Below are positions 3,049-61,835 of a DNA stretch of 64,000 bases, in pieces. Where the stretch lies: the NCBI GenBank assembly GCA_017412085.1, contig JAFPYS010000019.1:90155-154154 (forward strand), in the 5' to 3' direction. The stretch comes from Alphaproteobacteria bacterium. GTDB lineage: Bacteria; Pseudomonadota; Alphaproteobacteria; CAAHEQ01; UBA3637. A program made the position numbers and the translations under genes. The notes below the pieces were generated by a model. It was not told where the DNA came from. It was given only the letters and a program-made list of their open reading frames with translations, and made no database searches. The stretch's first letter is position 1. Every line of letters begins with the position of its first letter.

Positions 3049-3078
3049 ATAATTATTCTTTCTTATTAAAGTTAAACA

Positions 3079-4229: not shown

Positions 4230-4265
4230 GCCCAAGGAATGCAAAATCTTTCTTTTTGATGTAAA

Positions 4266-5054
4266 TCAAGGGCATATTTTGTAATAATTTCCCCAATTTG
4301 GGTGATCGCAAAAATTAGCATGAAATTTCATTTCTTTTAATGTCTTTTCATCTAAAATACCACCAGTAAAATATACTCCGCCAGTGGCCTTTATTGCTAA
4401 AGCGTAATTCATTAAAACGCGTGCAAATTCATTATAAAAAAGCTGGTAAGTTTTACGTGCCATGCGATCTTTTTTTAAACATTTTTCAGCAATTTTAACA
4501 GCAGAAATCGGTGCCTTCCTGTGTGTTAGTTTTTGATATAATTTTTTGAAACCATTACCAGATATCTTTTCTTCAATGGCATGATTATCTGGCAAGACGT
4601 TTTGCCCATATTCCGATGGACACACAACGCCATTCACGATATAACAAGCGCCCAATCCTGTTCCCACATTCATCAAGATCTTTGGAGCTTTATTTGCTTT
4701 TTTGTTATTCAAGGGAACAAGATCTTTTGAAGTCAATGACGATATGGCGGAACCTTGAACTTGTAAATCATTCATTAAGACAACCTGTTTTAGGTTCAAC
4801 TTCGTTTTTAACTTTTTTGCATTTAGTTTCCACGATCTGTTTGTCCATGATACTTCCTCGTTAAATACTGGCCCTGGAACACCTGCTAAGATGAATTTTG
4901 CATCCGGGGCATAGCCGTGTAAAAACGACCCAAACAATAAATATGGATCCTTAAAATCACCGCAGGCAAATTGGTAAATAGCAGATAACCGGCCTTTTTT
5001 AATAAAAGCCAATCGGGCATTGCTTGCTCCCAAGTCGGCCACAATAACGGTCAT
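4266..5054 (-). CDS. glucokinase-family sugar kinase (Glk-like), short form
   Basis: Motifs DLGASNARLAF (compare DVGGTNARLAL), MNDLQVQGSAI, GTGLGACYIV and TGGIL align to E. coli Glk. Start set at the ATG with an AGGAGG RBS at 5054; the upstream extension in the ORF track is ignored. Confidence 0.65.
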   Translation of the reverse strand: MTVIVADLGASNARLAFIKKGRLSAIYQFACGDFKDPYLLFGSFLHGYAPDAKFILAGVPGPVFNEEVSWTNRSWKLNAKKLKTKLNLKQVVLMNDLQVQGSAISSLTSKDLVPLNNKKANKAPKILMNVGTGLGACYIVNGVVCPSEYGQNVLPDNHAIEEKISGNGFKKLYQKLTHRKAPISAVKIAEKCLKKDRMARKTYQLFYNEFARVLMNYALAIKATGGVYFTGGILDEKTLKEMKFHANFCDHPNWGNYYKICP

Positions 5055-5263
5055 ACGAATAATCCTCCTAGAACACAAATAACATTATGATAAACACATC
5101 CTAAGTGCGCCCACAACCTTCCCCCAAAAGAAGCGTTCTTTCCATTTTCTACACATACTAATAATTCATCTGTGCAGTGTACCGTAAAACTTGGTGTTAA
5201 AAACAACGCAGTCAAAAAAACAAAAATCGCGATAACAACTAAATAAATAATCCACTTTTTCAT
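5051..5263 (-). CDS. small hypothetical membrane protein (70 aa, one TM helix)
   Basis: Its ATG overlaps the ptsP stop as ATGA, and its stop overlaps the glk-like start; this translational coupling supports a real gene. Hydrophobic helix IIYLVVIAIFVFLTALFL. Confidence 0.4.
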   Translation of the reverse strand: MKKWIIYLVVIAIFVFLTALFLTPSFTVHCTDELLVCVENGKNASFGGRLWAHLGCVYHNVICVLGGLFV

Positions 5264-7464
5264 GATATTTCTCCCAAATGGACATGATGGTCCCGCAGAT
5301 ATGAAGATAAGGCATTACGCAGGGAAGATTGCTTGCTGTTCAATTGGGACATGAGATAGTCACGGTATTTGTCTAAATTTAAGCTCCGAATGGCCGTTTT
5401 TACGGCTACAACAGATTCTGGACTCATAGATAACGTTCTGATACCCAATGCCAATAATGTTAATGCTTCTAATGGACGAGAAGCCATCTCACCACAAACA
5501 GAACATTTTACATGATAAGCATCGCATTGTTCTACAATCAGATTTAATGCTCTTAAAAAAGCAGGGCACAATGAATCGTAACGATTGTTAATTTGCGTAT
5601 TCGTCCTGTCCGCAGCGAACATAAATTGGGCCAGGTCGTTTGTCCCAATGGAAATAAAATCCACTAACGGCAACAAGTTATCCAGTTGGAAAATCAAGGC
5701 TGGCACTTCCAACATTGTGCCCACAATGATTTCTTTAGGCGTTTTTTGTTTGCGCAATATTGCATTTTTTAACTCAATTTCCAACGTCTTCTTGCTTTCA
5801 ATGAATTCTTCAACGGTTGTGATCATTGGGAACATAACCCTTAATGTACTGCCTGCTGTTGCTCGCAAAAGAGCCCGCAATTGATTTCTAAGGAGTGCGC
5901 GCCGGTCTAATGTCATGCGGATCGACCTCCACCCCATGGCTGGATTTTCTTCACCTTGTTGTTCAAAATATGGCAACACCTTATCAGAACCAATATCTAG
6001 TGTCCTGAAAATAACTGGTTTATTTTTGGCCTGAACTAAAACACGCTTGTACGCTTCGGTTTGTGTCCGAATGTCTGGTAAAGACTTTGCAGTCATGAAC
6101 AATAACTCTGTTCTATATAAACCGATACCATCGCAAGGGGGTAAATGATCCACTGCCCCAGACAGCCCCATGTTTAACATAAGCGATACATCCACTCCGT
6201 CTTTTGTTTGTGCGGGTTTGTCTTTATTTTTGGCCTGTAAACGAGCCATGCTTCTTAAGGCTTGTTGATAACTTTTTAACGTATCCAAAGTTTCATCCGA
6301 TGGGCGCAAATAAATCTTACCTTGCACAGCATCCATAGCAACTGGCGCCCCCTCTTCCAATTGGCGCACGGCTTCTTTGACCGCTCCAATCAAGGGAATT
6401 CTGTAAGCGCGAGCCACAATAACAACATGCGTTGTTTGCGAACCATCTTCCAAAACAATACCTTTAATGTGTTTTAAGTCATAATCCAATAACTCTGCTG
6501 CGCCCAAATTGTCGGCCACCAATATTTTATTGCCAATCAGCTTTTTTTTACCACTCTTAGGGATCAGGGCTTGCATTAATCTGGCAGTCAAATCTTGAAA
6601 ATCGCGTGCGCGTTCCCGTAAATATGGATCGGCGACAGCTCTCATCTTTTCCAATGTTTCATCGCCAACTTTCTGCAAAGCCGCCTGTGCGGTAAGTCCG
6701 GTCTTTATTGCAGATTCAACTTTGTTTTTCCATTCGACATCGCTTAAAAACATCAGATAGGTTTCAAACAATTCCTTTTCTTCTGCTGGCGTTGAAGGAT
6801 GAGTCAATCGACGTTGTATTAAACGTTTAACCTTCGAAAACGAAGTGTTTAGACGTTTGATTTCGCGATCCGGATGAATTGTAAGGATTGGGCCGTTAAT
6901 TTCCAACCGTCGGTGTAACAACACCTCGCCCAGCGCAAAACCTTGTATCATTCCTGTTCCCTCTAATGTCCTGGAGACAGAAAGAGACACCAAATTCTTT
7001 GTTGTTTTGCTGCTTGTTAATTCAGCCAAACACTCGGCCAATATCATGGCTACATTTTGAACCGCTTCTACGATTTCGGTGCTAAATGATTCCTTGCGCC
7101 GCGATAATAGGCCAAGCACCGCCAATACTTGATTTCCGCGTACCATAGGAACAACCAAAATGGTCTTGTTGACGCCTTTGGATGAAATAACGGCCTTGCG
7201 ATCCAAAGCGACCCGCCCAACGATTTCTTCCCCAAGTCGAACAAATGTTGGCAATTGGACGGGGCGACCAATTGCAAGGAAGTTTTCCAAAATATCGCCA
7301 GGACGCATAACGTATAAAACAGCCGATGGCATCTTAAGTTGTTCACACAATAACGTGAGAACAGTATTTAACCTTTTGGGGCCAGACATCTCTTTTGCCA
7401 TTACATCACGTAAGGCACTCATCATCGCCGTTACAGAAATAGTTGATCCCTTTGTCGGTGACAT
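5260..7464 (-). CDS. ptsP: phosphoenolpyruvate--protein phosphotransferase EI-Ntr (N-terminal GAF domain plus PEP-utilising enzyme domains)
   Basis: 734 aa. N-terminal GAF-like region, then PEP-utilising enzyme motifs (GGRTSHAAI-like segment LEDGSQTTHVVIVARAYRIP, plus the C-terminal TIM-barrel region). Confidence 0.85.
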   Translation of the reverse strand: MSPTKGSTISVTAMMSALRDVMAKEMSGPKRLNTVLTLLCEQLKMPSAVLYVMRPGDILENFLAIGRPVQLPTFVRLGEEIVGRVALDRKAVISSKGVNKTILVVPMVRGNQVLAVLGLLSRRKESFSTEIVEAVQNVAMILAECLAELTSSKTTKNLVSLSVSRTLEGTGMIQGFALGEVLLHRRLEINGPILTIHPDREIKRLNTSFSKVKRLIQRRLTHPSTPAEEKELFETYLMFLSDVEWKNKVESAIKTGLTAQAALQKVGDETLEKMRAVADPYLRERARDFQDLTARLMQALIPKSGKKKLIGNKILVADNLGAAELLDYDLKHIKGIVLEDGSQTTHVVIVARAYRIPLIGAVKEAVRQLEEGAPVAMDAVQGKIYLRPSDETLDTLKSYQQALRSMARLQAKNKDKPAQTKDGVDVSLMLNMGLSGAVDHLPPCDGIGLYRTELLFMTAKSLPDIRTQTEAYKRVLVQAKNKPVIFRTLDIGSDKVLPYFEQQGEENPAMGWRSIRMTLDRRALLRNQLRALLRATAGSTLRVMFPMITTVEEFIESKKTLEIELKNAILRKQKTPKEIIVGTMLEVPALIFQLDNLLPLVDFISIGTNDLAQFMFAADRTNTQINNRYDSLCPAFLRALNLIVEQCDAYHVKCSVCGEMASRPLEALTLLALGIRTLSMSPESVVAVKTAIRSLNLDKYRDYLMSQLNSKQSSLRNALSSYLRDHHVHLGEIS

Positions 7465-7542
7465 CCCCCTCTCCTTTTATTTTATTTTAGCAGAATCAAA
7501 TTTCAATCGTCAAGATTTTTTTGATAAAAACATAAAAAAGAC

Positions 7543-7570
7543 TTGCAAAAAGTTTTTTTTCGTGTATAAT
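7543..7570 (+). promoter_or_regulatory. sigma70-like promoter for tRNA-Glu (TTGCAA-16-TATAAT)
   Basis: TTGCAA at 7543-7548, a 16-nt spacer, TATAAT at 7565-7570, about 22 nt upstream of the tRNA. Confidence 0.55.
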
Positions 7571-7592
7571 ACCCTATGTTCTTATTCTAAAG

Positions 7593-7668
7593 GACCCCAT
7601 CGTCTAGAGGCCTAGGACATCGCCCTTTCACGGCGGTAACACCAGTTCAAATCTGGTTGGGGTCGCCA
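7593..7668 (+). tRNA. tRNA-Glu (anticodon TTC), CCA encoded
   Basis: GACCCCA acceptor pairing with TGGGGTC, anticodon loop CTTTCAC, T-loop TTCAAAT. Closely parallels E. coli tRNA-Glu. Confidence 0.9.
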
Positions 7669-7697
7669 TTTAAACGCCTTTGCTGGGCGTTTTTTTA
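7669..7697. terminator. bidirectional rho-independent terminator (tRNA-Glu on the plus strand, ABC transporter on the minus strand)
   Basis: Hairpin AACGCC-TTTGCT-GGCGTT flanked by an A-run upstream and a T-run downstream. Confidence 0.6.
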
Positions 7698-9473
7698 TTT
7701 CAATTGTGTTTTATAAAGGGATGCATACACGGAATCCGGATTGGCCAACAATTGGTCATGTGTTCCCATTTCCTTAATTTCCCCGTGATCGATCACAACA
7801 ATATTATCGGCATTTTTAACGGTGGACAAACGGTGGGCAATGATAAACACAGTCCGGTCTTTCATTAAGTTATAAATGGCCTGTTGCACAATCTCTTCTG
7901 ATTTATTATCCAAAGCGGATGTAGCCTCATCCAATATCACAATCGGTGCATTTTTCAAGAATGCCCGCGCAATGGCCACACGTTGCTTTTGTCCGCCGGA
8001 CAACTTTGTGCCGCGCTCCCCAATTTCAGAGTCTAAACCATTAGGTAGAGATTCAATAAATTCATCCAAACAGGCGTTATGGACTGCTTTTTTGACTTCT
8101 TCCGCTGTTGCATCTGCTTTGCCCAATAAAATGTTCTCTCTAATTGTACCAGCAAACAAAATATTATCTTGGAATACAATAGCAATATGATTGCGTAAAT
8201 CATCTAAATCAAGCTCTTTAACATTGATCCCGTCAATTTGGACAGATCCTTGCGTCACGTCATAAAAACGCGGTAAAAGTGTTACCAAAGTAGACTTACC
8301 ACCACCAGAATTCCCGACCAACGCAATTGTCTTGCCTTTATGAATTTCTAGATTAATGTCTTTCAAGACTGGGCGCCCCTTTTCATACTCAAACCATACA
8401 TGATCAAACACAATCTTATTGATTCCTTTAATATATCTTGGATGTTCACAGTTATGAATGGAAGGAATCGCCTCCAAACTGTCAAACACGCGGTCCATTG
8501 CCAAAAGCGACATCTGAAGCTTTGAATAGTTGCTTCCAATAGACTTGATTGGATGATAAAGCATCAACAAAGCTGTGATGAAGGACACAAATCCTCCAGG
8601 TGTTAACTTGTTGGATGTAATCAGATAGCTGCCCAACCAGATTACCCCTGCAATACCAATAGACACAATAAAGTGCATCATGGGCGTTAACATACCCGTC
8701 TTTTTGGTCATATTCATCCCTAATTTAAAGACTGAACGTAATGTTTCATTAAATTTATCACTGGCATATTTATAAAGATTGAAGGATGTAACAACTTTAT
8801 TACCCATAAACGCCTCGTTATAATGGGTCATAACGCGGGCTCCGGAAAATACTGTTTTATCCATGATGGACTTAATTTTACGCCGCAATCCAGCCAATGG
8901 TAAGAAAGCACCAAACATGACAATAATAGCAATAATGGACAATTGCCATGAGTTCCAAATTAAGACAAACACCAAAGAAATAGACGAAAATAAGCGAGTT
9001 GTAAATAGTTTTAGATTAGAAAGCAATCCACTACATGCAGTATCTGCATCATGGTTAAAACGTTGGATAACATTACCAGATGTGTTTTTATCAAAGAATT
9101 TTGCATCATTATGGATAAGTTTTTGGAACAAATCCTTCTTTAAATCCATTGTAATCTTTTGACCAACCCATGTATTTAAATATGTGGCAGCATAGTTTAA
9201 CAGACTTTGGGCAACGCTAAAGACAATGATAAGAGCTGGAATTAAAGAGGTTGCCTGCACACTCTTTTCAATCATCACCGTATCCATATAGGGTTTCAAT
9301 ACCCAAGCAATTGCTGCATCCATTGCACCCAACGGCAATGTTACTAATATCGCCAATATTGCCCGAAAGAGATATGGTTTAACATATGGATAAATCTTTC
9401 GATAATTGCGCACAAGATTTGTTTCTGTTAATTTTAATGGTAGTTTCATCCACGACCCTTCTCTTAAAGACAT
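7695..9473 (-). CDS. ABC transporter permease/ATPase fusion, MsbA-like lipid or glycolipid exporter
   Basis: 592 aa with six predicted TM helices, then Walker A GNSGGGKST, ABC signature LSGGQKQR and Walker B ILDEATSALD. Confidence 0.85.
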   Translation of the reverse strand: MSLREGSWMKLPLKLTETNLVRNYRKIYPYVKPYLFRAILAILVTLPLGAMDAAIAWVLKPYMDTVMIEKSVQATSLIPALIIVFSVAQSLLNYAATYLNTWVGQKITMDLKKDLFQKLIHNDAKFFDKNTSGNVIQRFNHDADTACSGLLSNLKLFTTRLFSSISLVFVLIWNSWQLSIIAIIVMFGAFLPLAGLRRKIKSIMDKTVFSGARVMTHYNEAFMGNKVVTSFNLYKYASDKFNETLRSVFKLGMNMTKKTGMLTPMMHFIVSIGIAGVIWLGSYLITSNKLTPGGFVSFITALLMLYHPIKSIGSNYSKLQMSLLAMDRVFDSLEAIPSIHNCEHPRYIKGINKIVFDHVWFEYEKGRPVLKDINLEIHKGKTIALVGNSGGGKSTLVTLLPRFYDVTQGSVQIDGINVKELDLDDLRNHIAIVFQDNILFAGTIRENILLGKADATAEEVKKAVHNACLDEFIESLPNGLDSEIGERGTKLSGGQKQRVAIARAFLKNAPIVILDEATSALDNKSEEIVQQAIYNLMKDRTVFIIAHRLSTVKNADNIVVIDHGEIKEMGTHDQLLANPDSVYASLYKTQLK

Positions 9474-17238: not shown

Positions 17239-19974
17239 CTATACAAATTTATCCAGCACACTTGACCAACGACTTACCTTGTCGGCATAGGTTGTTTGAA
17301 TGCTGGAATAAGCTTTTGCCCTTGATTTTAACATTAACACCCGACCTTCTACGTTGCGTGTGTAAATCACTTTACAATAACCAATATGTTTTTGCCAGTT
17401 ATTTTTAAAAATATTCGCCATTTCTTTGTTTTCAGATAAAATCTCTGGTAAAGCATGATAATCTTTTTGTTGCCACCATTTAACATTTGTATTTTGGCGC
17501 ACCAACAAGTACCTAGGATTATCAATCGGATCCAAGAATTGTTTCATGGCATTAATAAAGACATGATTATCTTTTTGATTTAGGCCGATCGCACTCACTG
17601 TATAATGAACACCTGGAATCTTTTTAACCTTTAGCAACGCTGCTTTTGGGGACGTGTTAATGGCATCTATCTCATATAAACTTTCTAACATCACAAGACC
17701 GATTTGTTCCAACATTTTTTCAGGACGTCCCGCCCTTAGAACTTTCCAAGTCGGAATCAACATAGCCACTATAAATACAGCGATAATTAATCCATATACC
17801 CACAAAGGCGCCATATTATCGTAAGCGATCTTACAGGCTTGATAAGCAAGGAATCCATAAGCGATAAGCATCGTGAAATAAGCATCCACAAAAGGTAATG
17901 TCTTTACTTTATTATTTGTGTCCAGTTCTTGTTTAACAGACCCGATGCCGACTTTTGATTCCTTTACAATTCCTTTTTCCCAAGCTGTTTTTGTTTCCTC
18001 GCGTGTATAAGCAAGTGCTTTTTCATTCAATTCGTCCAATTTCTTTTCTTTTAATTTAGTTGATTTTGTTCCCCATAGACAACGATCCATCCCATTCGTA
18101 ATATCATAAGGCGGCAATAAGCTTGGCGCTTCATAACCAGCAAAGCGACGACTTAAAGATTCAAAATCGCCACCGATATCGCCCTCTTCTCCCTTCCAAT
18201 TATCCACAATATTAAACACTTTGATGTTTGCCAGGTGCCAAATATGCGAAATCTTATCCGGATGATTTTTATCGACACGGATGGCGCGTCCCCGCATTTG
18301 GTTTGAAAGCATATAAGATGCCACGGCACTAGACAACACCAACGAGTTAATACTTGGAGCATCCCAACCTTCGCCCAACAAAGCCTGTGTCCCAACCATA
18401 ATCGTCAAATGACCACCATTAAACAAGTCTGTAATTAAATCCACAATCTTGGATTTTGCCTTTTCCTTTGGCTTAACCGTCACATAATCTGGATAATATT
18501 TAAAGGATGAAAAAGTTACATCGGACTTGTTCAAATTGGCTTTTTCCATTAAATCGACCAAAGGTTTTTCCGCATTTTTTGGAAGTAAGATAATTTGTCC
18601 GGTTAAAATACCAATACTGGCTTTTGGCAAATGAAGTGCCTCCAAGTGTCTGAAAATCGGTACCACACCCAAAGCATCTACCTTAGTCTCAAAGGCATCA
18701 TGCTTAATCAAATCGGCCAAAATTACCATCCGCAAGTCAGCTCCTAACAGGCTATGCTCACGTTTTACAATTTCCTCAATGGCGTCTAATTTCCCGAGAC
18801 TGCGAGCCAATGTTTGTGCAACCGAAGCATTATTTTGAATTTGCACAGATTTGTTTTCAATCAAGTTTGCCTTGGCCGCTTTTTGATGCAGAGAGTTAAT
18901 TTGATCGGCCAATTCGGGATACTTTTCCCCGTGTTTAAAAATTAAACCATTTAACACACGTTCGATCTCTGGTAATGTCAAGCGAGGCAACTCTTCGCCA
19001 GTTGCCTGAAAAATTTCCAAAAATGGCTTGGCAATTTCTTTCTTTTGAGTTTTTAAATAGCTTGACAAAGCAAGATAAAATTCTGGATCATCAAACAATT
19101 CCACCAAAAAAGGATCTGGATTATTCCAAAAAGAAAGCTGTTGAACAGCCGCGCCAAATTCTTCGTTTTTTAAAAAATCATCTACAAACGCTTTTGCCGC
19201 TTGTTCATGCTGAGCCAAAGCTTGTTTTTCTTCTTCGCGCAAATGAGCAAAGTAAATCAAGTCTTGATGTGGACATAAATCCCCAGCCTGCACCAACTCA
19301 GGGATGCTGATTTCGGCATCAACGGGACCACATAAAGCTTCATACCGATCCCATTCGTGCCGATCCACATCATAGGGAGGCGTTGCCGTTAAAGCCACAG
19401 TTTTTTTAAGGCTCATGTGCTCCATCAAATATTCCAAAGCCTTCCACCATTCTTTGCGCAGGTGATGGGCTTCATCCAAACACAGCACTTCGATCTTGGC
19501 TTTCTTTAAAATCTCGACCAACTTTAACGCTTTTTCTTCGTTTAAGCGTGACAATTTTTGAGCGCGCTTTTCCGCCTGCTCTTCCAAGGCGGACACTTCC
19601 TCGTCCGTTAAATCTTCTTTGACATCCTTTTCCACTTGACCGCTTAAGCCCGCCAACAATCCTTGATAGGTTGAAAGGGTGATTGTTTTGGGCGCCAAGA
19701 TATTTGTGGAAATCATGTCATCCGCAATCTTTTTGTTGGTCAAAAAGGCCTGTTTTAAACGGGATGCCCATTGATGTTTAATCGTGATTGTCGGCGTTAA
19801 AATCAAACAAGGTTTTGCAATACGGCGCAAAACCTCCAATCCCAAGATGGTTTTGCCGGCGCCAGGGGCCGCCACAATGTGTAATTTTTCGTCTTCAATG
19901 TGATTGTCCAAATCGTCCAAAATCGCCTGTTGATAGGATCGCCATTTGCCTTGAAATTGTAAATCTTTAAACAT
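17239..19974 (-). CDS. SF2 DEAD/DEAH-box helicase-family protein with a C-terminal membrane-associated extension
   Basis: 911 aa. Motif I AAPGAGKT, motif II LDEAHH, motif III TATP, motif VI QMRGRAIR. The C-terminal 300 aa contain two predicted TM helices (FTMLIAYGFLAYQACKIAY and LWVYGLIIAVFIVAMLIPTW). Confidence 0.8.
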   Translation of the reverse strand: MFKDLQFQGKWRSYQQAILDDLDNHIEDEKLHIVAAPGAGKTILGLEVLRRIAKPCLILTPTITIKHQWASRLKQAFLTNKKIADDMISTNILAPKTITLSTYQGLLAGLSGQVEKDVKEDLTDEEVSALEEQAEKRAQKLSRLNEEKALKLVEILKKAKIEVLCLDEAHHLRKEWWKALEYLMEHMSLKKTVALTATPPYDVDRHEWDRYEALCGPVDAEISIPELVQAGDLCPHQDLIYFAHLREEEKQALAQHEQAAKAFVDDFLKNEEFGAAVQQLSFWNNPDPFLVELFDDPEFYLALSSYLKTQKKEIAKPFLEIFQATGEELPRLTLPEIERVLNGLIFKHGEKYPELADQINSLHQKAAKANLIENKSVQIQNNASVAQTLARSLGKLDAIEEIVKREHSLLGADLRMVILADLIKHDAFETKVDALGVVPIFRHLEALHLPKASIGILTGQIILLPKNAEKPLVDLMEKANLNKSDVTFSSFKYYPDYVTVKPKEKAKSKIVDLITDLFNGGHLTIMVGTQALLGEGWDAPSINSLVLSSAVASYMLSNQMRGRAIRVDKNHPDKISHIWHLANIKVFNIVDNWKGEEGDIGGDFESLSRRFAGYEAPSLLPPYDITNGMDRCLWGTKSTKLKEKKLDELNEKALAYTREETKTAWEKGIVKESKVGIGSVKQELDTNNKVKTLPFVDAYFTMLIAYGFLAYQACKIAYDNMAPLWVYGLIIAVFIVAMLIPTWKVLRAGRPEKMLEQIGLVMLESLYEIDAINTSPKAALLKVKKIPGVHYTVSAIGLNQKDNHVFINAMKQFLDPIDNPRYLLVRQNTNVKWWQQKDYHALPEILSENKEMANIFKNNWQKHIGYCKVIYTRNVEGRVLMLKSRAKAYSSIQTTYADKVSRWSSVLDKFV

Positions 19975-19991
19975 CTCTCCCCCTGATATAT

Positions 19992-20984
19992 TTATCGTTC
20001 TTTTGGTGCGTATTTAGCCAAAGTCACCGCCACAGGACTTTCAAATGGTTTGGCCAGTTGTTTTTGTTGTTCCAACTTTTCCATTTCTTTTTTGTGCTTT
20101 TGTAATCTCTCAAAGGTCATCAAACCAGACAGGGCGGCACAAAACCCCAAAAAACCACGCTCCATTATAGGCAGATTTGGTGCAAATAGGGCAGTTGGTA
20201 TAGCCATAGCAGCACCAGATGCCCGTACAGCTAGACCGGCCACATACGATTTTCTGTCGGCGTCTTTCAACTTTTCATGTTCAGCATTAAACCATTGTGC
20301 CACACCAGCCGCGGTTTCTTGAATGCCATGTTTTTTCACGCTATCCATCAAGGTCAATGGATCCGCCATGGCCAGACCAACCAGTGCTGGCATTTTATCA
20401 AAACGCTCTGACGGCAATTGTTCATATAGCTCTGCAAATACCCTGCGATATTTCATGTATTGCTCGTCTGTTAAAAACGACACCTTTTCTTCCCGATTTT
20501 TCTTAATCATTTTGGCAAAGAAATTGTATTCTTTTTTGCTGTCTAAACCATTATTCAAAGAATCAAAGAAATCATCAAATTTTAATGCATACTTCCATCT
20601 ATGCAAAGAATAAAGTGTTTCACAAAAATCGGCATATTTATCTAAATTAACATGACCTTCTGTATCAACTTCACCATCTCTTGCATCAAACATTTTCAAG
20701 ATTTTTTCAGGGCAAACATATTTTACTCCACGACGTAATATTGCTATTCCCAATTCCGGAACAGGAACACCACACACTTTTCCAAAACCATGATCTGGCC
20801 GAACCAACAAAAATCGTTCGCGCAATTCTTTTCTGGCCGCCTTAGCACCCTCGGTCAAATCCCACGCAGAAAATTCGTGTTCCTCCACCTTTAGAAAGGC
20901 ATTAATTTCTTCCTCCCGCAGCTTGATCTGATGGCGGATCCAATCTTTTTCATCATTGAAATTTGTGTGTTTGTGCGATTCCAT
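19992..20984 (-). CDS. hypothetical protein (paralog of the next gene) with a C-terminal bilobed hydrophobic segment
   Basis: 330 aa. About 45% identical over the C-terminal 200 aa to the 313-aa neighbour (FDKMPxALGLAMAD, SVKKxG, GVAxWFxAE). Hydrophobic hairpin AGLAVRASGAAMAIPTALFAPNLPIMERGFLGFCAALSGLM. Confidence 0.65.
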   Translation of the reverse strand: MESHKHTNFNDEKDWIRHQIKLREEEINAFLKVEEHEFSAWDLTEGAKAARKELRERFLLVRPDHGFGKVCGVPVPELGIAILRRGVKYVCPEKILKMFDARDGEVDTEGHVNLDKYADFCETLYSLHRWKYALKFDDFFDSLNNGLDSKKEYNFFAKMIKKNREEKVSFLTDEQYMKYRRVFAELYEQLPSERFDKMPALVGLAMADPLTLMDSVKKHGIQETAAGVAQWFNAEHEKLKDADRKSYVAGLAVRASGAAMAIPTALFAPNLPIMERGFLGFCAALSGLMTFERLQKHKKEMEKLEQQKQLAKPFESPVAVTLAKYAPKER

Positions 20985-20996
20985 TTCAGCACCTTC

Positions 20997-21938
20997 TTAT
21001 CTTGATGGGCTGTATTTATCAAAAATCGCGGCCACCTTGCCCAGGTTGCTTTCACCCTTCTCTTGTTTGTTTTCATCGTGTTTTTTCAGCTGATAAAGGG
21101 CCAACCAACCAGATACCGCCGCCACAGCGCCCAAAAGACCACGACCAACCATCGGCATATTCGGTGTAAAGACGGCCGTTGGCAACGCCACGGAAGCGCC
21201 CGTGATGCCCGCAACAAGGCCCACTTTTCTGCGGACTTCTTTTTTGTGTTTCGCACGTTCAGCATCAAACCATTCTGCAACACCTCTTGCTGTTTTTTCA
21301 GGACCATATTTTTTCACGCTGTTGATCAAAATGGCCGAATCTGCCATAGCCAAACCCAATGCCTGAGGCATTTTATCAAAGCGTGGTCTTCCATCAAACA
21401 AATCGGAGGGCAATTGATCATAAACGTCCACAAACACCTTGCGATAGTTTTCGCGTTCATCTTCGGATAAAAAAGATATTTTTTCGTTTTGATTTTTACC
21501 AATCAATTTAAGAAAGTATGCCATCTCAAAAGACTTCAAACCACCCCAAAAATTCCCAGTGTCTATATACGCTTTCCAAAATTCGTATTCGTGTAGCGCG
21601 GCAGTATAAATAAAATATTTTTTATACAAACGTGGATTGACCTGAATTCCATATCCTGGTTCGTCATGGAACATCTTCATCATTACTTTGGGGCTAATGT
21701 GATTCAACCCTTGACACATCCTGGCCAACCCTAATTCATCAGAACCGGTATGTAACATTGGATGCACCCCAATACCATTTTTGTCCCAAGTGTCAATCAA
21801 CATGTCACGTAAATCTTTCTTGTTGGAGTCGGCCTCCATAGATGCATCCCATGCGGAAAGATCCTCCGCTTCATCATCCTCTTCCGGACGAAATGTTTTT
21901 TCTAACGCTTTTACTGTTCTGAGAGCGTCTTCGGCCAT
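20997..21938 (-). CDS. hypothetical protein (tandem paralog) with a C-terminal bilobed hydrophobic segment
   Basis: 313 aa. Shares blocks with the 330-aa neighbour. Hydrophobic hairpin VGLVAGITGASVALPTAVFTPNMPMVGRGLLGAVAAVSGWLALY. Confidence 0.65.
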   Translation of the reverse strand: MAEDALRTVKALEKTFRPEEDDEAEDLSAWDASMEADSNKKDLRDMLIDTWDKNGIGVHPMLHTGSDELGLARMCQGLNHISPKVMMKMFHDEPGYGIQVNPRLYKKYFIYTAALHEYEFWKAYIDTGNFWGGLKSFEMAYFLKLIGKNQNEKISFLSEDERENYRKVFVDVYDQLPSDLFDGRPRFDKMPQALGLAMADSAILINSVKKYGPEKTARGVAEWFDAERAKHKKEVRRKVGLVAGITGASVALPTAVFTPNMPMVGRGLLGAVAAVSGWLALYQLKKHDENKQEKGESNLGKVAAIFDKYSPSR

Positions 21939-41719: not shown

Positions 41720-41794
41720 GACCCTATCATCTAACGGTTAGGATACGGCCCTCTCAAGGCCGGTACACGGGTTCAAATCCCGTTAGGGTCGCCA
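41720..41794 (+). tRNA. tRNA-Glu (anticodon CTC), CCA encoded
   Basis: GACCCTA acceptor pairing with TAGGGTC, anticodon stem-loop CGGCC-CTCTCAA-GGCCG, T-arm ACGGG-TTCAAAT-CCCGT. 75 nt. Confidence 0.85.
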
Positions 41795-41799
41795 ATTAA

Positions 41800-41828
41800 A
41801 AGGATGCCCCATTTGTGGGCATTTTTTA
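41800..41828 (+). terminator. rho-independent terminator after tRNA-Glu(CTC)
   Basis: Hairpin ATGCCC-CATTTGT-GGGCAT followed by T6. Confidence 0.6.
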
Positions 41829-41903
41829 ATTGGGAAATTTCTGACAGGAAATGAACACGTCGGGTTCGGCCAAAGGCAACGCCTTAAGGCGGTAAATCCC
41901 GTT

Positions 41904-41923
41904 AGGGTCGCCATTAAGTGCAA
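41904..41923 (+). repeat. 20-nt direct repeat of the tRNA-Glu 3' end (AAATCCCGTTAGGGTCGCCA); tRNA remnant with no 5' half
   Basis: Exact copy of tRNA-Glu(CTC) positions 56-75 lying 110 nt downstream. No complementary acceptor 5' strand upstream. Followed by its own terminator. Confidence 0.55.
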
Positions 41924-41931
41924 AACGCCTT

Positions 41932-41956
41932 TTGTGGGCGTTTTTTCTTTTATTTT
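41932..41956 (+). terminator. rho-independent terminator after the tRNA-fragment repeat (similar to the tRNA-Glu(TTC) terminator)
   Basis: AACGCC-TTTTGT-GGGCGTT followed by T6. Compare AACGCC-TTTGCT-GGGCGTT at 7672. Confidence 0.5.
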
Positions 41957-42021
41957 CAATCACTTGTGATAGTTCGTAACTCTATTTATCAAAATCGGCT
42001 ATTTTTCAGCGTTTCCAAACT

Positions 42022-42456
42022 TTACTTACCAATAGTATTACTTAGACGCGGCGTTCTGTTATGAACAAGTGCGTGTTTCTTTTGGCATTGCTCCGCAAAA
42101 GTTTTAACATACGGTGCTAGTTTGCCCGGTCCTACAGCTTCATATTTTGCTGGGTCGTATTGCAAAGGAAAACCTTTATTTAATAACTCCACTCCAATAT
42201 CAACCATTTTCAGATGAGCATTCTGGCTGGCCGTCAAAAGTCGGCTTGTTTTTTTATACAAGTAACTTTCGTCAAATAATTCTTGAGCCAACCAATAACT
42301 GCTTGCCAAAAATTGCCCAGCAACAATATCCCCACCCTCTTCCTTTTTATATTGGAAATCTGGCTTACTTACAATCCCGCGAACCGAATCCAATCGAGCA
42401 TTCAACGGACCCAATTCATTGATTAAATCACAAATTTCAAAGTACTTTTCTCGCAT
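42022..42456 (-). CDS. hypothetical protein (144 aa)
   Basis: ORF with coding-like composition. No family recognised. Confidence 0.5.
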   Translation of the reverse strand: MREKYFEICDLINELGPLNARLDSVRGIVSKPDFQYKKEEGGDIVAGQFLASSYWLAQELFDESYLYKKTSRLLTASQNAHLKMVDIGVELLNKGFPLQYDPAKYEAVGPGKLAPYVKTFAEQCQKKHALVHNRTPRLSNTIGK

Positions 42457-57052: not shown

Positions 57053-57565
57053 TTAATATTTTATACCTATACATAAAACATCTGGCACTTCATCCGTACA
57101 ATCCGTCTTGCTTTTCTTGCATTTTCCACCTGAATATTCGTATATACCTACAACTTCACCCTTAGCATAATGCTTTTTCTCCTCTTGCACACGCTTCATT
57201 AAAGCCTTGCACACTGACGCATCCAAAGCCTTTCCACCATTAACATTTCCCACAGGAACAGCAACATAACCAAGCGCCGCCTCACGCTTGACACCGGTAT
57301 TGTTATCGCCCACACCGTAGCCATAAGACGTTATAGCAGAAGCTCCACCAGCCTGTTTATCAAAAACACCATAAGTCAATTTACTAGACTTCTTTTCTGC
57401 AACCAATGCACGTTTACGTACCTCATCCAACAAATTGTTTAATCGCACTTGAGATGTCGCATCTCCAAAAAAGGCCATACCACCAACGGTCAAAAGTCCT
57501 ATGAGCGCCAAAACACCAAGCATTTCCAATAGCGTACGCCCACTATTTTTTTCCATTCGTTGCAT
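57053..57565 (-). CDS. type IV pilin-like protein (prepilin-type N-terminal cleavage/methylation domain)
   Basis: MQRMEKNSG|RTLLEMLGVLALIGLLTVGGMAFF, with Gly-1, Arg+1, Glu+5 and a hydrophobic helix. The C-terminal pair of Cys (C...C) is typical of a pilin disulfide loop. Confidence 0.6.
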   Translation of the reverse strand: MQRMEKNSGRTLLEMLGVLALIGLLTVGGMAFFGDATSQVRLNNLLDEVRKRALVAEKKSSKLTYGVFDKQAGGASAITSYGYGVGDNNTGVKREAALGYVAVPVGNVNGGKALDASVCKALMKRVQEEKKHYAKGEVVGIYEYSGGKCKKSKTDCTDEVPDVLCIGIKY

Positions 57566-57785: not shown

Positions 57786-58067
57786 TTATCTTTCGCTTGA
57801 CACAAAATGTGTGTTATTGGTCAATGCTGGATTAACCGCTTGTTTTTGTGCAACTGCAGGGGCCTTTTTACTATATTTAGCCAAAGAACGACCCGCCGCA
57901 TACACAGCACATCCGAACCAACCAATACCAGCTGCCGCAATCATTAAACAAGCACCAGCAACAGCAACAACTTGCTTGGTTGTATAAGCACGTCCATCTG
58001 ACATGTAATAAACACCATCACGTTTGACATAAGTCAATTCATCTTCTGTTTTAATTTGTTCTGCCAT
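57786..58067 (-). CDS. hypothetical small membrane protein (93 aa)
   Basis: A single central hydrophobic helix, VVAVAGACLMIAAAGIGWFGCAVYAAG. No family recognised. Confidence 0.4.
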   Translation of the reverse strand: MAEQIKTEDELTYVKRDGVYYMSDGRAYTTKQVVAVAGACLMIAAAGIGWFGCAVYAAGRSLAKYSKKAPAVAQKQAVNPALTNNTHFVSSER

Positions 58068-58191: not shown

Positions 58192-58268
58192 CGGAGCGTA
58201 GCGCAGCCTGGTAGCGCACTTGTCTGGGGGGCAAGTGGTCGTGGGTTCAAATCCCGCCGCTCCGACCA
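58192..58268 (+). tRNA. tRNA-Pro (anticodon GGG), CCA encoded
   Basis: CGGAGCG acceptor pairing with CGCTCCG, anticodon stem-loop CTTGT-CTGGGGG-GCAAG, T-loop TTCAAAT. 77 nt. Confidence 0.9.
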
Positions 58269-58274
58269 CTAAAC
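58261..58274 (+). repeat. direct repeat TCCGACCACTAAAC (tRNA-Pro 3' end plus 3' flank), copy 1 of 3
   Basis: Last 8 nt of tRNA-Pro plus 6 nt of trailer. Repeated at 59137-59150 and 59998-60011, each preceded by a degenerate copy of the tRNA T-arm region. Confidence 0.7.
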
Positions 58275-58276
58275 AC

Positions 58277-58306
58277 AAGTCGTCTGAAAAGGCGACTTTT
58301 TCTTTT
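58277..58306 (+). terminator. rho-independent terminator after tRNA-Pro
   Basis: Hairpin AGTCGTC-TGAAAA-GGCGACT followed by a T-run. An identical hairpin recurs at 60014-60040. Confidence 0.55.
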
Positions 58307-58525
58307 ATTTCCAAGGCGTTGTGCGAGTTCGAATGTCCAACTGTCAAAATGGACAATTTCCAGCCATTTACGAACTCTTGAAGCAAAATTTCCTTTGTTT
58401 TCAATGCCCGCCCCTCGGGAGCCTAAACCCACCATCCCAGAAAAAACTGAATTTTTTATTGCATTAAAAATAATAATTTTGTATAATATCTTGCGAGAGA
58501 TTTGAGCAATCAAAAAGGAGTTATC

Positions 58526-59092
58526 ATGAACAAAAAAGTAGTTTTTCTAACTGGAAATCCTCATAAAAAAGAAATTGCAGAAGCGGTTTTTGCATTATAC
58601 GGTTTAGAAGTTGAAGCACACGATATTGATCTTGAAGAAATACAAGAAACAGATATTGAGAAAATCGCTACATGGAGTGCTTTACAGGGGGCAAAACGAT
58701 TAAATATGCCGGTCATAAAAACAGATGTCGGTTTTTCAATAGATGCCTTAAATGGTTTCCCTGGAGCATTCGGAAAGTATGTATTTCCACAGTTGGGGGT
58801 CGAAGGCTTGCTTCGATTGATGGCGGACAAAACAAACAGGCATGCAACTTCTACTGAAGTATTAGCATTTGCTACACCTGATGGCAAAACCAAAACTTGG
58901 ACTAGGGTTCAAGATCTTGAAATATTAACAGAGCCAAAGGGTACAGGATCAGCGATTGATCAAATTATGGTTGTATCAGGAGAACACACCGTCAATTATG
59001 GGAGCATGGCCCATGAAGAAAAAATGGAGTGGTGGCGAAAAGGCCCGAATTACTTCCATGAGTTTGCAAAATGGTTTATCAGTCAAAATTGA
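58526..59092 (+). CDS. Ham1/RdgB-family non-canonical purine NTP pyrophosphatase-like protein
   Basis: KVVFLTGNPHKKEIAEAV (compare KVVLATGNVGKVRELASL), TDVGFSIDALNGFPGAFGKYVF (compare [21 protein letters not shown]), GTGSAIDQIM (compare GTGGFGYDPIF). AGGAG RBS before the ATG at 58526. Confidence 0.6.
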   Translation: MNKKVVFLTGNPHKKEIAEAVFALYGLEVEAHDIDLEEIQETDIEKIATWSALQGAKRLNMPVIKTDVGFSIDALNGFPGAFGKYVFPQLGVEGLLRLMADKTNRHATSTEVLAFATPDGKTKTWTRVQDLEILTEPKGTGSAIDQIMVVSGEHTVNYGSMAHEEKMEWWRKGPNYFHEFAKWFISQN

Positions 59093-59136
59093 TAGTATTT
59101 CGTTTTTTAAAATGGGCTCGTAAATTGCGCATTCAT

Positions 59137-59150
59137 TCCGACCACTAAAC
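59137..59150 (+). repeat. direct repeat TCCGACCACTAAAC, copy 2 (boundary between islet 1 and islet 2)
   Basis: Preceded by AAATGGGCTCGTAAATTGCGCATTCAT (degenerate tRNA-Pro T-arm) and followed by ACAA plus a hairpin, as after the genuine tRNA. Confidence 0.7.
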
Positions 59151-59388
59151 ACAAAGCATCAGAAATGGTGCTTTTTTCTTTTGTTTCCAAGCGCTTATAA
59201 GGGTTCGAATGTTGAAAGCGCAAAATCGGCCATTTTCAGCCATTTACGAACTCTTGAAGCAAGTTTTCCTTTAAAATCAATACTTGTCCTCTGGGAACCT
59301 AAAACACTAATCCCAGAAAATATACTTGCATACATCAAAAATTTATGATATATTTTCCGTCGAAAAAATTGGATAAAAGGAAATAAAC

Positions 59389-59976
59389 ATGGAAAATTTA
59401 GAAAAAGAAAAAATTCGTTCTATATTGGATAGTCCTGTTGTTTTTATTCACAAATCAACAAAAGAAGAAAAAGATTTATATCCAGATAAAAAAGTAGGAT
59501 GGTTTTATACTTTTGGTTTAGAGTCTGGTCAAATTTTTGTTTCTCATTTTCAACCGATGGAAGAGTATTCTGATACATTGGTTTCAACGTTTAAACCATT
59601 TAATGCCTTATTACCAGATTTAAAAGAAATCAATTTTAAAACCCGCTTTATGTTTAACAGGGAAAGAGATATTGAAATGTATACCCAATATCATCCAAGA
59701 GTCAGTGAAAATGAACAAAAAGTATATGATGAAATAATTGCTTCAAAATATAATGGAAATTCATACGAGTTTATCCCTTTATATCAGAAAAGTTGGCCTG
59801 TTCACTTTGAATTGGTCCGTTGTGCCGAATTAAGAAAAGAATTACTACGTCATCAGAAATTATTAAAAAAAGAACTGACTATTCAAAACAAAGAATCTCG
59901 AATTCCAGAAAGATGTTCTACTCATAATCAAACAGAAAAGATGAGTTTGCATTTGAAAGAGCCTCATGTGAAATGA
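59389..59976 (+). CDS. hypothetical protein (195 aa), cargo of islet 2
   Basis: ORF with a GGATAAAAGGAAA RBS-like region. No recognisable family. Confidence 0.5.
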   Translation: MENLEKEKIRSILDSPVVFIHKSTKEEKDLYPDKKVGWFYTFGLESGQIFVSHFQPMEEYSDTLVSTFKPFNALLPDLKEINFKTRFMFNRERDIEMYTQYHPRVSENEQKVYDEIIASKYNGNSYEFIPLYQKSWPVHFELVRCAELRKELLRHQKLLKKELTIQNKESRIPERCSTHNQTEKMSLHLKEPHVK

Positions 59977-59997
59977 GCTCGTGATTTGAGAGTTGAT

Positions 59998-60011
59998 TCC
60001 GACCACTAAAC
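59998..60011 (+). repeat. direct repeat TCCGACCACTAAAC, copy 3 (distal boundary of islet 2)
   Basis: Preceded by AAATGAGCTCGTGATTTGAGAGTTGAT and followed by the same terminator hairpin as copy 1. Confidence 0.7.
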
Positions 60012-60042
60012 TTAGAGTCGTCTGAAAAGGCGACTTTTTATT

Positions 60043-60771
60043 TTAATTTTTCTTATTATATATTGCGGCAACATCGACCAATATTTGCCGTATTTCTTTG
60101 TCCTCCTTTGGCATCTTGGCGATTACCTTTGGCAAATTCTCTTCCATTTTATCAACAGCCCCACGATCAACAGGAACTCTTTCCGGCATAAAATGCCGCA
60201 TAAAAGCCAACAATGCCGCTTTTTCGTCCGACACATCATAGCCTATTTCTTTAAGCAATGTTTTTGTGCGCTTTAAAGATTTTTGTTTAATTTGTTTCTT
60301 CGGCCATAGACCAATACCATATTTTGCCATTTCCTTCCAAGGAAAAGAAAAATTTGGATCCAGTTTGCGTGTCGGAGCAATATCGCTGTGCCCCACAACA
60401 TTTTCAGGCCGAATGTGGTGTTTTTTTATAATTTGTGTTGCCAACTTCACAAAAGCATCTAATTGAGCCTTTGGATATGGTTTTTGTCCAAAACTAGGAG
60501 TGTATAATTCAATACCAATAGAGGTTGCATTTAATCCAGAGTCACCACGCCAACAGCTTTTGCCCGCATGCCACGCTACCTTATTTTCCCCAACAAATTG
60601 GCTAATTTGACCTTTATTGTCGATCATATAATGCGGACCAACACCAAATTTATCCCATAATTTTAAACTTTTAGACACAGAAAAGGCAAAGCAATGCACA
60701 ACTAAATGGCGTATTTTTTTATGTGGATCGCGTTCCGCAAAATGTGGCCAGTTCAATTGTTTTATTTGCAT
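60043..60771 (-). CDS. ampD: AmpD-like N-acetylmuramoyl-L-alanine amidase (amidase_2/PGRP fold)
   Basis: WHAGKSCW, HSDIAPTRKLDP and IGIEL zinc-ligand motifs of 1,6-anhydro-MurNAc-L-Ala amidase. Adjacent to nagZ. Confidence 0.75.
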   Translation of the reverse strand: MQIKQLNWPHFAERDPHKKIRHLVVHCFAFSVSKSLKLWDKFGVGPHYMIDNKGQISQFVGENKVAWHAGKSCWRGDSGLNATSIGIELYTPSFGQKPYPKAQLDAFVKLATQIIKKHHIRPENVVGHSDIAPTRKLDPNFSFPWKEMAKYGIGLWPKKQIKQKSLKRTKTLLKEIGYDVSDEKAALLAFMRHFMPERVPVDRGAVDKMEENLPKVIAKMPKEDKEIRQILVDVAAIYNKKN

Positions 60772-61835
60772 TTTTGCCCCCTCATCTTATGCAACACCTC
60801 TACGGCATCATAATCCGTTGTCAAATTTTGAGTTTTCTCAGCCAATTCAGCATAGCGGCAATACGCTTTCTTCCTGTCAAACTTAGCTGGTTTTTGCACA
60901 ACAATTTCATGAATACGTGCAAAACGTTCCATTGCCTCATCCGTTAAAGGACGTGCCGCCTTAATAACTTCTTTTAATTCGTCTTCAATACCAAAGCAAT
61001 AACACACGGCATCACATCCCGCCTCTAAACTTGTCTTTGTTCGTTCGGCCAATGATCCACCCAACGCCTTCATGTCAATCGCATCGGAAAGCAAAAATCC
61101 GTGAAATCCGATTCGCCCTCTGATAATCTCTTCAATAGCCTTCTTTGACTGGGTAACAGGCTTGTCATCCACTGCAGAAATCACAATATGCGCCGTCATC
61201 CCAGCTGGAGCATCTCGTCCAACCGCGTGAAAAGGATAAAAATCTTTTTCCAATTCCTTTAGGCTTTGCGGCAAAATCGGTAAATTTAAGTGGGGATCAA
61301 CCACGGCTCGCCCATGCCCTGGCAAATGCTTCACACAAGGACAAATCCCACTTGCTTGATAAACATCCAACAAAATCTTACCGCGCGCCGCCACTTTCTT
61401 TTCATTAGTTGAAAAAATACGATTTCCCAAGGCGGGTGTTGTATCCGGATAAGCCACATCCAACACCGGCGCATAGTTCCAATTAACACCCAGTTCACGC
61501 AAATCCGCCGCAATTAACGAGCCATGCAAGCGAGTAATTTCCTCACCCATCTTACCATTTAATGATCCCAATGAATATTGCGACACATAATGGGGCCATT
61601 CTGGCGGGGAAAAACGGCAAACCCGTCCTCCTTCTTGATCCACGGCAATAAGAATATCTTCGCGCCCAATCACCTCTTTTATGGATTTGATTAAAGCTTT
61701 TACTTGTCTTTTATCTTGTACATTTCTTTTAAATAACGTAATTCCCATTGGATTTGCTTTTTCCAACAGGTGTTTTTCCGCATCAGTCAATTCCAAACCA
61801 GACACGGAAAGCATGGCAGCTAATATAGATTTCAT
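60762..61835 (-). CDS. nagZ: beta-N-acetylhexosaminidase NagZ (GH3 family)
   Basis: GITLFKRN, KHLPGHG and D-H catalytic motifs. 357 aa. Overlaps ampD by 10 nt. Confidence 0.85.
   Translation of the reverse strand: MKSILAAMLSVSGLELTDAEKHLLEKANPMGITLFKRNVQDKRQVKALIKSIKEVIGREDILIAVDQEGGRVCRFSPPEWPHYVSQYSLGSLNGKMGEEITRLHGSLIAADLRELGVNWNYAPVLDVAYPDTTPALGNRIFSTNEKKVAARGKILLDVYQASGICPCVKHLPGHGRAVVDPHLNLPILPQSLKELEKDFYPFHAVGRDAPAGMTAHIVISAVDDKPVTQSKKAIEEIIRGRIGFHGFLLSDAIDMKALGGSLAERTKTSLEAGCDAVCYCFGIEDELKEVIKAARPLTDEAMERFARIHEIVVQKPAKFDRKKAYCRYAELAEKTQNLTTDYDAVEVLHKMRGQKCK

Follow-up and report, generated by a model that had tools for sequence, protein, structure and literature searches.

The 64,000-nt stretch analyzed here (positions 90,155–154,154 of contig JAFPYS010000019.1, assembly GCA_017412085.1, from an Alphaproteobacteria bacterium; hereafter, the window) harbors two small gene cassettes in tandem directly after a tRNA-Pro gene, delimited by three copies of the tRNA 3' end. 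The copies belong to a conserved module of ∼215 nt that recurs in arrays of related genomes. Our preferred reading, held with a little over even confidence, is that this small array belongs to a family of tRNA-anchored cassette arrays formed by serial insertion through a recombinase acting in trans together with homologous recombination between the modules.

The cassette array at the tRNA-Pro gene

The 14-mer TCCGACCACTAAAC, which comprises the last 8 nt of tRNA-Pro and 6 nt of its trailer, was found exactly three times in the 64 kb, always on the plus strand and with spacings of 876 and 861 nt (Table 1); no fourth match was obtained when up to two mismatches were allowed. The number expected by chance was 0.35, and none of 100 shuffled sequences reached three copies. 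All three core copies are followed by a terminator-like hairpin, AGTCGTCTGAAAAGGCGACT being common to copies 1 and 3 and AAGCATCAGAAATGGTGCTT present at copy 2. Copies 1 and 2 could be aligned over 184 nt at 76% identity (58261–58444 versus 59137–59320; blastn E 5e-26), and a stretch of 27 nt on the left side of the core is common to copies 2 and 3 (83% over 41 nt). The first module begins inside the tRNA-Pro gene, which is intact and whose compared part, GGTCGTGGGTTCAAATCCCGCCGCTCCGACCA, is identical to that of the cassette-free relative L015 (sequences other than the window are designated by L numbers). The terminal copy (59971–60048) consists of left arm, core, and hairpin without a right (R) arm and abuts the stop codon of ampD. 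As this stop codon is located at 60043–60045, hairpin 3 probably also terminates ampD transcription on the opposite strand.

Most of a preliminary description of the locus was borne out by these observations. It had reported the recurrence of the tRNA end and trailer, a hairpin after each copy (identical at copies 1 and 3), junctions resembling attachment (att) sites anchored on the tRNA 3' end, units with one gene each and no recombinase (confirmed by a Pfam scan of the open reading frames, ORFs), and ampD and nagZ directly after the array. Two of its statements held in part. The degenerate T-arm copy said to precede each tRNA end is weak in the window, where a gap is needed and few positions match, and is clearer in L025 (GGTGTCGTGGGTTTAGAAG..GGCCGACCA) and in the internal copies of L026 (AAATCCCGCCGCTCCGACCA). 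Core and hairpin, given as the repeated unit, are real, but the actual unit is the ∼215-nt module with its conserved right arm.

Gene 1, the cargo of cassette 1, encodes a Ham1-family protein whose nearest solved relatives are the archaeal Mj0226 (E 3.5e-21) and PH1917 (E 3e-16), E. coli RdgB/YggV being matched only at E 8.5e-6. The product also matched KomB, a HAM-like protein (E 4e-7). For gene 2, the sole relative among 5.8 billion proteins was a 95%-identical variant in L030, from which it differs mainly at third codon positions; its GC content is 28–31%, as against ∼39.5% for the window. Each gene is preceded by a promoter-like site specific to its cassette; a consensus promoter scan missed that of cassette 1, the first hexamer of which is weak. 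For genome annotation, the Ham1-family gene and gene 2 are flagged as accessory and recently exchangeable genes and not as core genes.

The same two cassettes are present in independent assemblies of the same strain. Three short contigs from other samples of this strain start or end inside modules: L003 and L004 begin, at position 1, in a 26-nt exact R-arm repeat, and L005 (1–928) spans copy 2 to copy 3. These ends may be assembly breaks at repeats or strain-level variation of the array; no other hints of excision or integration were obtained.

Table 1. Coordinates of the array, its neighbors, and related units (window positions unless an L number is given).
Feature	Location	Strand	Remarks
tRNA-Pro(ggg)	58192..58268	+	Array anchor (putative attB/attI role); ARAGORN; Rfam tRNA 61.9 bits
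Core copy 1	58261..58274	+	TCCGACCACTAAAC; last 8 nt of tRNA plus 6 nt of trailer
Hairpin 1	58278..58310	+	AGTCGTCTGAAAAGGCGACT plus T run; terminator-like
R arm, module 1	58311..58448	+	GTTCGAAT at 58327–58334, inverted AGTTCGTAAAT at 58366–58376; 53-bp palindromic layout; end ..CCCAGAAAA
Promoter-like site, cassette 1	58459..58487	+	TTGCAT, 17 nt, TG-n-TATAAT; read from the sequence
Gene 1, cargo of cassette 1	58526..59092	+	188 aa; Ham1-family non-canonical nucleoside triphosphate pyrophosphatase; Ham1p_like E 1.6e-20
Left arm, module 2	59110..59136	+	Type A1, AAATGGGCTCGTAAATTGCGCATTCAT; motif GCTCGTAAAT 26 nt before CCA
Core copy 2	59137..59150	+	
Hairpin 2	59154..59186	+	AAGCATCAGAAATGGTGCTT plus T run; compensatory allele of hairpin 1
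R arm, module 2	59187..59323	+	GTTCGAAT at 59203–59210, inverted AGTTCGTAAAT at 59242–59252
Promoter-like site, cassette 2	59326..59354	+	TTGCAT, 17 nt, TG-n-TATATT; read from the sequence
Gene 2, cargo of cassette 2	59389..59976	+	195 aa; no Pfam match
Left arm, terminal copy	59971..59997	+	Type A2, AAATGAGCTCGTGATTTGAGAGTTGAT; overlaps stop codon of gene 2
Core copy 3	59998..60011	+	attR-like array end
Hairpin 3	60016..60048	+	Identical to hairpin 1; no R arm after it
ampD	60043–60771	−	Directly after the array
nagZ	60762–61835	−	After ampD
tRNA-Glu(ctc)	41720..41794	+	Second anchor
Diverged module	41874..42068	+	nhmmer E 4e-33; filler ending in tRNA-Glu 3' 20 nt AAATCCCGTTAGGGTCGCCA (41896–41915), hairpin, diverged R arm
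GC-rich ∼100-nt units before tRNA 3'-end copies	L031 9483–9605, 9640–9758, 14865–14987		
GC-rich ∼100-nt units before tRNA 3'-end copies	L016 8970–9095; L026 ∼3255–3290, ∼4742–4777; L024 ∼935–1030		L024: insertion

The module and its family

A degenerate R-arm pattern was scanned over public collections, and a profile hidden Markov model (HMM) of the module was then built from the copies found. Among one-genome-per-species contigs, the pattern matched the metagenome-assembled genome "Alphaproteobacteria bacterium SIG60", and nine true loci were obtained from JGI metagenomes; matches in L022 and L023 had no module context, and those in L010 and L011 were judged to be chance from their taxa alone. 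The HMM detected more than 20 full modules (nhmmer E 1e-39 to 1e-64). Chance or low complexity as the source of the repeats is ruled out by the shuffles together with module E-values down to 1e-64. The modules lie head to tail in arrays of two to four or more cassettes, and the hosts are related uncultured Alphaproteobacteria of gut metagenomes. No modules outside arrays were found in the rest of the 64 kb by blastn or with the HMM.

At least six arrays with a total of more than 25 units were recorded. The cassettes measure ∼0.7–1.7 kb and contain one or two genes, the majority of which have a promoter-like site of their own. The array of L026 is composed of tRNA-Pro, three cassettes, and a terminal partial copy (5535–5604); those of L032–L034 (SIG60 type) of tRNA-Pro, four cassettes (methyltransferase; NUDIX plus HAD; sulfatase-family; a 71-aa ORF), and a degenerate end; L027 contains four module copies; and further arrays are present in L024, L019, and L020. 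The first copy starts within a real tRNA gene (Pro in the window, L024, L026, and L032; fMet in L029), and no R arm is present in the last one (window copy 3, L026 5535–5604, and L009 4358–4390), which is, as read from the sequence, an attL/internal/attR pattern, seen in the window and in other arrays alike. The tRNA-derived part of the core varies with the tRNA (..TCCGACCA, ..CCCCGCAACCA, ..GGGTCGCCA, ..GTGCCCAACCA), while the flanking arms stay homologous; the acceptor end GTGCCCAACCA is found next to the arms in both L019 and L031.

The cargo is diverse and almost never common to two arrays; outside the window, some of it is on the opposite strand. It includes Ham1, NUDIX, HAD, methyltransferase, sulfatase-family, GNAT, MORN, and GT-D proteins and many without known relatives, a diversity like that of integron cassette pools. 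NUDIX homologues in the longer contigs L037–L041 are core or operon genes without modules. In one of these, L038 (GCA_965352295.1, a more distant relative), a type II CRISPR (clustered regularly interspaced short palindromic repeats)-Cas locus with Cas9, Cas1, and Cas2 is located at 1808–6450 between SNF transporter and methyltransferase genes; it is absent at that place in the sister assembly L037.

Across the family, the module has five parts, namely, a left arm, the 3' acceptor strand of the target tRNA with CCA, YTAAAYACAA, a terminator hairpin, and an R arm of ∼140 nt. In the window, the last 8 nt of the tRNA including CCA are followed by CTAAACACAA, the hairpin with its T run, and an R arm ending in ..CCCAGAAAA, after which come the promoter-like site and the gene. 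The left arm is of two kinds, either a T-arm-like CGTRAATTGCGCA stretch (type A) or a GC-rich stretch similar to the RtT family of Rfam (type B). The R arm has a fixed palindromic layout of 53 bp, GAGTTCGAAT-N31-ATTTACGAACTC. The motif GTTCG(T)AAAT occurs at fixed offsets from CCA, i.e., −26 (direct), +61 (direct), and +100 (inverted), an arrangement that appears similar to arm-type binding sites. In 18 of 19 modules, CCAYTAAAYACAA and the palindromic R-arm site are strictly kept while the neighboring columns vary. Identical runs of 18–26 nt are common to the modules.

RNAalifold analysis of 20 aligned modules showed covariation only in the 9-bp terminator hairpin, which occurs as two main compensatory alleles (a third was found in L032); two further short helices were invariant, and no palindrome spanning the module was found. 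The R arm as a structured RNA was ruled out, as no covariation was detected outside the terminator hairpin. It shows no 3-nt periodicity and hence is non-coding; a coding remnant was likewise ruled out, the overlying ORFs matching each other only through DNA conservation. An Rfam scan of the tRNA-Pro region detected the tRNA itself and no other known RNA family. A resemblance of left arm and core to dif/Xer sites (TGCGCAT to part of a XerC arm) was noted by eye only and dropped, as the would-be XerD arm is mismatched.

The type-B left arms and gene-less fillers of L031 align with the full RtT model of Rfam (RF00391) at 28–34 bits (28.5–34.1), below the gathering score of 45, which none reached; the tRNA-Pro region of the window gave no RtT match at E ≤ 1, nor did the tRNA-Glu region. 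GGUUCG and CGGCCCGAAGGG are the blocks common to type-B arms and RtT. Beyond L031, such arms or fillers are present in L016, in the internal copies of L026, and in an insertion of L024. In E. coli K-12 tyrT-tyrV (L042), four RtT units lie in tandem at 178-nt spacing (133–137 bits), each ending in the tRNA-Tyr 3' end. In both cases, the units directly follow tRNA genes, end with the 3' end of that tRNA, and are tandem; the E. coli units, in contrast, are nearly gene-free and regarded as part of the tRNA transcript, and the tRNA-Pro copies of the window use the type-A left arm, which has no RtT match. In view of this resemblance, RtT repeats and the att arms may have arisen from a common source.

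A second anchor in the window is tRNA-Glu. Downstream of this gene are its own hairpin, a 66-nt filler, a copy of the last 20 nt of the tRNA, a second hairpin, and a diverged R arm. The filler (41830–41895) has the motif of the type-B arms. The diverged module abuts the 3' end of a minus-strand ORF of 144 aa (42022–42456) without a Pfam match, and no right-hand att copy was seen at this locus (41720–42456). Elsewhere in the window (17239–21938), a 911-aa ResIII/DEAD helicase followed by two ORFs (330 and 313 aa) without Pfam matches may represent a defence or restriction-like cluster.

Exchange of cassettes and the proposed route of their insertion

The relative L015 (GCA_045660045.1; NagZ 84% and AmpD 54% identical) has the gene order nagZ-ampD-Bor-tRNA-Pro-pilin-mreB. 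It keeps tRNA-Pro near ampD, with the tRNA 3' part identical and the trailer different, and has neither a module nor the Ham1 gene nor gene 2 at this locus. It is effectively an empty site of the kind that the preliminary description had proposed to look for. In L030, the place of ampD after gene 2 is taken by the left arm, the core, ACAAGTCG.., a complete R arm, and another cassette, whereas in the window the same core is followed by TTAGAGTCG.. and then ampD, the two diverging right after CTAAAC. On the other side of tRNA-Pro in the window, a minus-strand gene (57053–57565) encodes a 170-aa protein without a Pfam match that resembles type IV pilins at its N-terminus (MQRMEKNSGRTLLEMLGVLALIGLL..) and the counterpart of which lies next to mreB in L015 (53% identity); between this gene and tRNA-Pro, a 93-aa minus-strand membrane ORF (57786–58067) looks degraded in L015.

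Cassettes were also found to move between arrays. The NUDIX-HAD cassette is ∼99–100% identical in L031 and L032, the NUDIX protein being identical. The common DNA extends from the middle of the upstream R arm (∼+135 nt after CCA) to ..GAATTGCGCA (−13 nt), where the right junction switches exactly between left arm and acceptor strand; a different acceptor strand, trailer, and hairpin follow. A gene for a 182-aa membrane protein is flanked by two modules in L027 and, in L016, adjoins a tRNA-Pro end that is duplicated; homology is confined to the coding part. A promoter stretch (..AAAATTTAATTTATTTTTCCTT..AAAATATGTTGACATTAG..) located right after the R arm is ∼90% identical in L030 (880–960) and L009 (4010–4090) in front of different genes, indicating that mosaicism reaches beyond the module.

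According to the preferred reading, a site-specific recombinase, the gene for which would lie at another place in the genome or on a transient element, would insert circular cassettes with one attP-like module serially, the target being the tRNA 3' end or a module already present. The product would be tRNA-core-P' on the left, P-core-P' between cassettes, and P-core-B' on the right, against ampD; the long and similar modules would also recombine homologously with each other, and cassettes would thereby be added, removed, and swapped. The anatomy of the arrays, the family, its variation between relatives, and the absence of a recombinase nearby are direct observations; the site-specific step and the kind of recombinase are what we infer. 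Integration by a recombinase in trans is favored because this three-part pattern is present, with tRNA-matched cores between conserved arms, and because CCAYTAAAYACAA and the palindromic arm are strictly conserved.

Several observations weigh against this reading, the weakest point of which is the recombinase. No recombinase, integrase, or transposase family was detected by Pfam in the window ORFs of at least 150 aa, and no recombinase was found within 10 kb on either side of the window or beside the arrays of L026 and L032; no circular or excised form of a cassette was seen. At the junctions, partial linkage is seen between the type of left arm and the hairpin allele (A2+G, five; A1+A, five; A1+G, three; A2+A, none), which free assortment at the core would not predict. 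The limits of the NUDIX-HAD segment in L031 and L032 fall at differing positions of the module, which a single crossover point does not account for; hence, homologous recombination between the 215-nt modules must also shape the arrays. All sequences are metagenome assemblies, and the order of an array across repeats could in principle have been misassembled, yet the arrangement of the window recurs in independent assemblies.

A tyrosine recombinase, assumed in the preliminary description, was found neither in the window nor in its 10-kb flanks, and the only recombinases adjoining an array are serine recombinases. They are located in L031, where a block (6109–9361) at the head of the cassette array comprises a resolvase (200 aa), a Dam methylase, a 58-aa ORF, and a large serine recombinase (545 aa; 7724–9361). 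The stop codon of the last lies 58 nt before a type-A left arm and core; the array has no intact tRNA within 10 kb. The large serine recombinase, for which no relatives were found in IMG/VR, is a candidate for the enzyme sought; alternatively, the block may represent an insertion unrelated to the array. In the viral contigs of IMG/VR, two R-arm patterns gave no matches, and a 16-nt left-arm pattern gave 36, all of which are taken as chance because none has a module. A phage origin is ruled out by the lack of R-arm matches in IMG/VR and of viral relatives of the large serine recombinase.

The finding of no recombinase nearby would also be expected if there were no dedicated enzyme at all and the modules served as portable homology for RecA-dependent recombination and unequal crossing-over once DNA from relatives had been taken up. 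The copy of the tRNA end could then in principle be the relic of one ancient event, homologous recombination doing all the work. The NUDIX-HAD segment, one limit of which falls within the R arm and the other ahead of the core, is in agreement with this explanation, as are the promoter stretches common to cassettes with different genes (L030 and copy Sc of L009) and the partial linkage of left-arm and hairpin alleles; the identical runs of 18–26 nt would suffice for homologous pairing. It leaves unexplained, however, why the same arms occur at no fewer than four different tRNA 3' ends with a core matched to each, why the first copy always starts exactly inside the tRNA and the last has no R arm, and why CCAYTAAAYACAA and the palindromic site are strict in 18 of 19 modules while their neighbors vary. 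We consider RecA-dependent recombination as the sole agent rather unlikely.

That the units are decayed integrase-bearing islands or prophages integrated in tandem at the tRNA is improbable. For tandem insertions with intervening partial tRNAs, and for degenerate remnants, precedents are on record (bioRxiv 10.1101/2020.12.28.424599), and the recombinase-bearing block of L031 does end in a type-A left arm and core directly upstream of cassettes. Random decay would not, however, give a module conserved over its full 215 nt; moreover, the more than 25 units in at least six arrays are uniformly small (∼0.7–1.7 kb), the genes in each are intact, most with their own promoter-like site, and none contains an integrase fragment.

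Finally, the module itself could be a mobile or duplicating, tRNA-derived non-coding repeat, similar to RtT or miniature inverted-repeat transposable elements, with ordinary chromosomal genes in between, as the sub-threshold RtT alignments of the type-B arms, the four E. coli units with almost no genes between them, and "empty" units at 41795–41915 of the window and 8933–9111 of L016 might suggest; this is very improbable, as arrays adjoining tRNA ends are the sole location of modules and the intervening genes are absent at the syntenic L015 locus, differ between close relatives, move together with module parts between arrays, and, in the case of gene 2, have a GC content markedly below the surroundings.

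Comparison with known systems

A bolder proposal, which we advance tentatively and regard as doubtful, is that the arrays represent a distinct gene-capture system analogous but unrelated to integrons. The tRNA-mimicking module would play the role of attC and tRNA genes (Pro, fMet, Glu, and others) that of attI; a trans-acting recombinase, possibly a large serine recombinase like that of L031, would move self-expressed cassettes; and the RtT repeats of E. coli tyrT would be gene-less relics of the same kind of process. If confirmed, the family would provide a sequence-defined recombination module for additive tRNA islands, until now described mainly by short tRNA-end repeats, and, from an uncultured gut lineage, a case in which single self-expressed genes accumulate as in integrons with no integrase linked to them. 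The module HMM and pattern provide a searchable signature for such arrays and their cargo in metagenomes, and a testable origin is suggested for the E. coli RtT repeats.

Integrons are similar to the present arrays in their head-to-tail, small, mostly single-gene cassettes with diverse, mostly unknown cargo, in a conserved recombination-site-like element between cassettes, and in insertion at one reserved site. However, no intI was found beside the array (window ORFs of at least 150 aa, 10-kb flanks, L026, and L032); the module is not a long imperfect palindrome and differs in this from attC sites, which are imperfect inverted repeats that fold into hairpins; and the cassettes of the window, instead of being mostly promoterless and read from a common Pc, have their own TTGCAT-17-TGnTATAAT-like site after the terminator. 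The anchor is a tRNA 3' end and not attI. The locus is not an integron, since it has no intI, no attC, and cassettes with their own promoters.

In staphylococci, the staphylococcal cassette chromosome (SCC) and pseudo-SCC elements form tandem cassettes at rlmH split by direct repeats of the target 3' end, and some cassettes without a recombinase use the Ccr large serine recombinases of another cassette. The L031 array likewise adjoins a large serine recombinase, here a candidate only. SCC elements differ in their protein-coding target, short repeats, and size of tens of kb.

The preliminary description held that tandem tRNA-borne cassettes of this kind were not a described element class. This was too strong in view of additive islands (PMC3698932; PMC10872708), tycheposons (bioRxiv 10.1101/2020.12.28.424599), and cis-mobilizable elements (CIMEs; PMC5704250). 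CIMEs are att-flanked, recombinase-less elements left by integrative and conjugative elements (ICEs) or integrative and mobilizable elements (IMEs). The present units are also att-flanked, contain no recombination or transfer genes, are tandem at one site, and presumably depend on a recombinase in trans. CIMEs, in contrast, are defined by the att sites of a known related ICE or IME, and the units here are far smaller and more numerous; no parent ICE or IME was found, although this left arm and core also form the end of one block of L031 that bears a large serine recombinase.

Tycheposons of Prochlorococcus integrate in tandem at tRNA genes, with partial tRNAs between elements and degenerate remnants (bioRxiv 10.1101/2020.12.28.424599). 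They resemble the arrays in tRNA integration, in tandem elements split by partial tRNAs, and in the accumulation of cargo-only remnants. Their genes include one for a tyrosine or large serine recombinase and, as a rule, replication genes, and their size is several to tens of kb, whereas the present units have neither kind of gene and no recombinase of their own is located next to the tRNA. Because its units are without recombinase or replication genes, the locus is not a tycheposon.

Additive flexible genomic islands (fGIs) arise by sequential insertions at a tRNA gene in Alteromonas (PMC3698932); in fGI-2 of "Ca. Methylopumilus", copies of the last 20 nt of tRNA-Lys recur among mostly unknown genes (PMC10872708). 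Similarly, the present arrays adjoin a tRNA gene, copies of its 3' end recur along them, most of the cargo is of unknown function, and cassettes vary between conserved flanks (none in L015, an extra one in L030, and four different ones at tRNA-Pro in L032). Additive islands as described have a short tRNA-end repeat only, whereas a ∼215-nt module with terminator and palindromic arm lies at every junction here; most units consist of one gene with a promoter of its own, and the same arms serve several tRNAs. Neither a long conserved module common to several tRNAs nor arrays of single-gene, self-expressed cassettes were found described in the literature searched. The general kind of element is already described, in additive islands, CIMEs, and tycheposon remnants, and it is the module itself that appears not to have been described.

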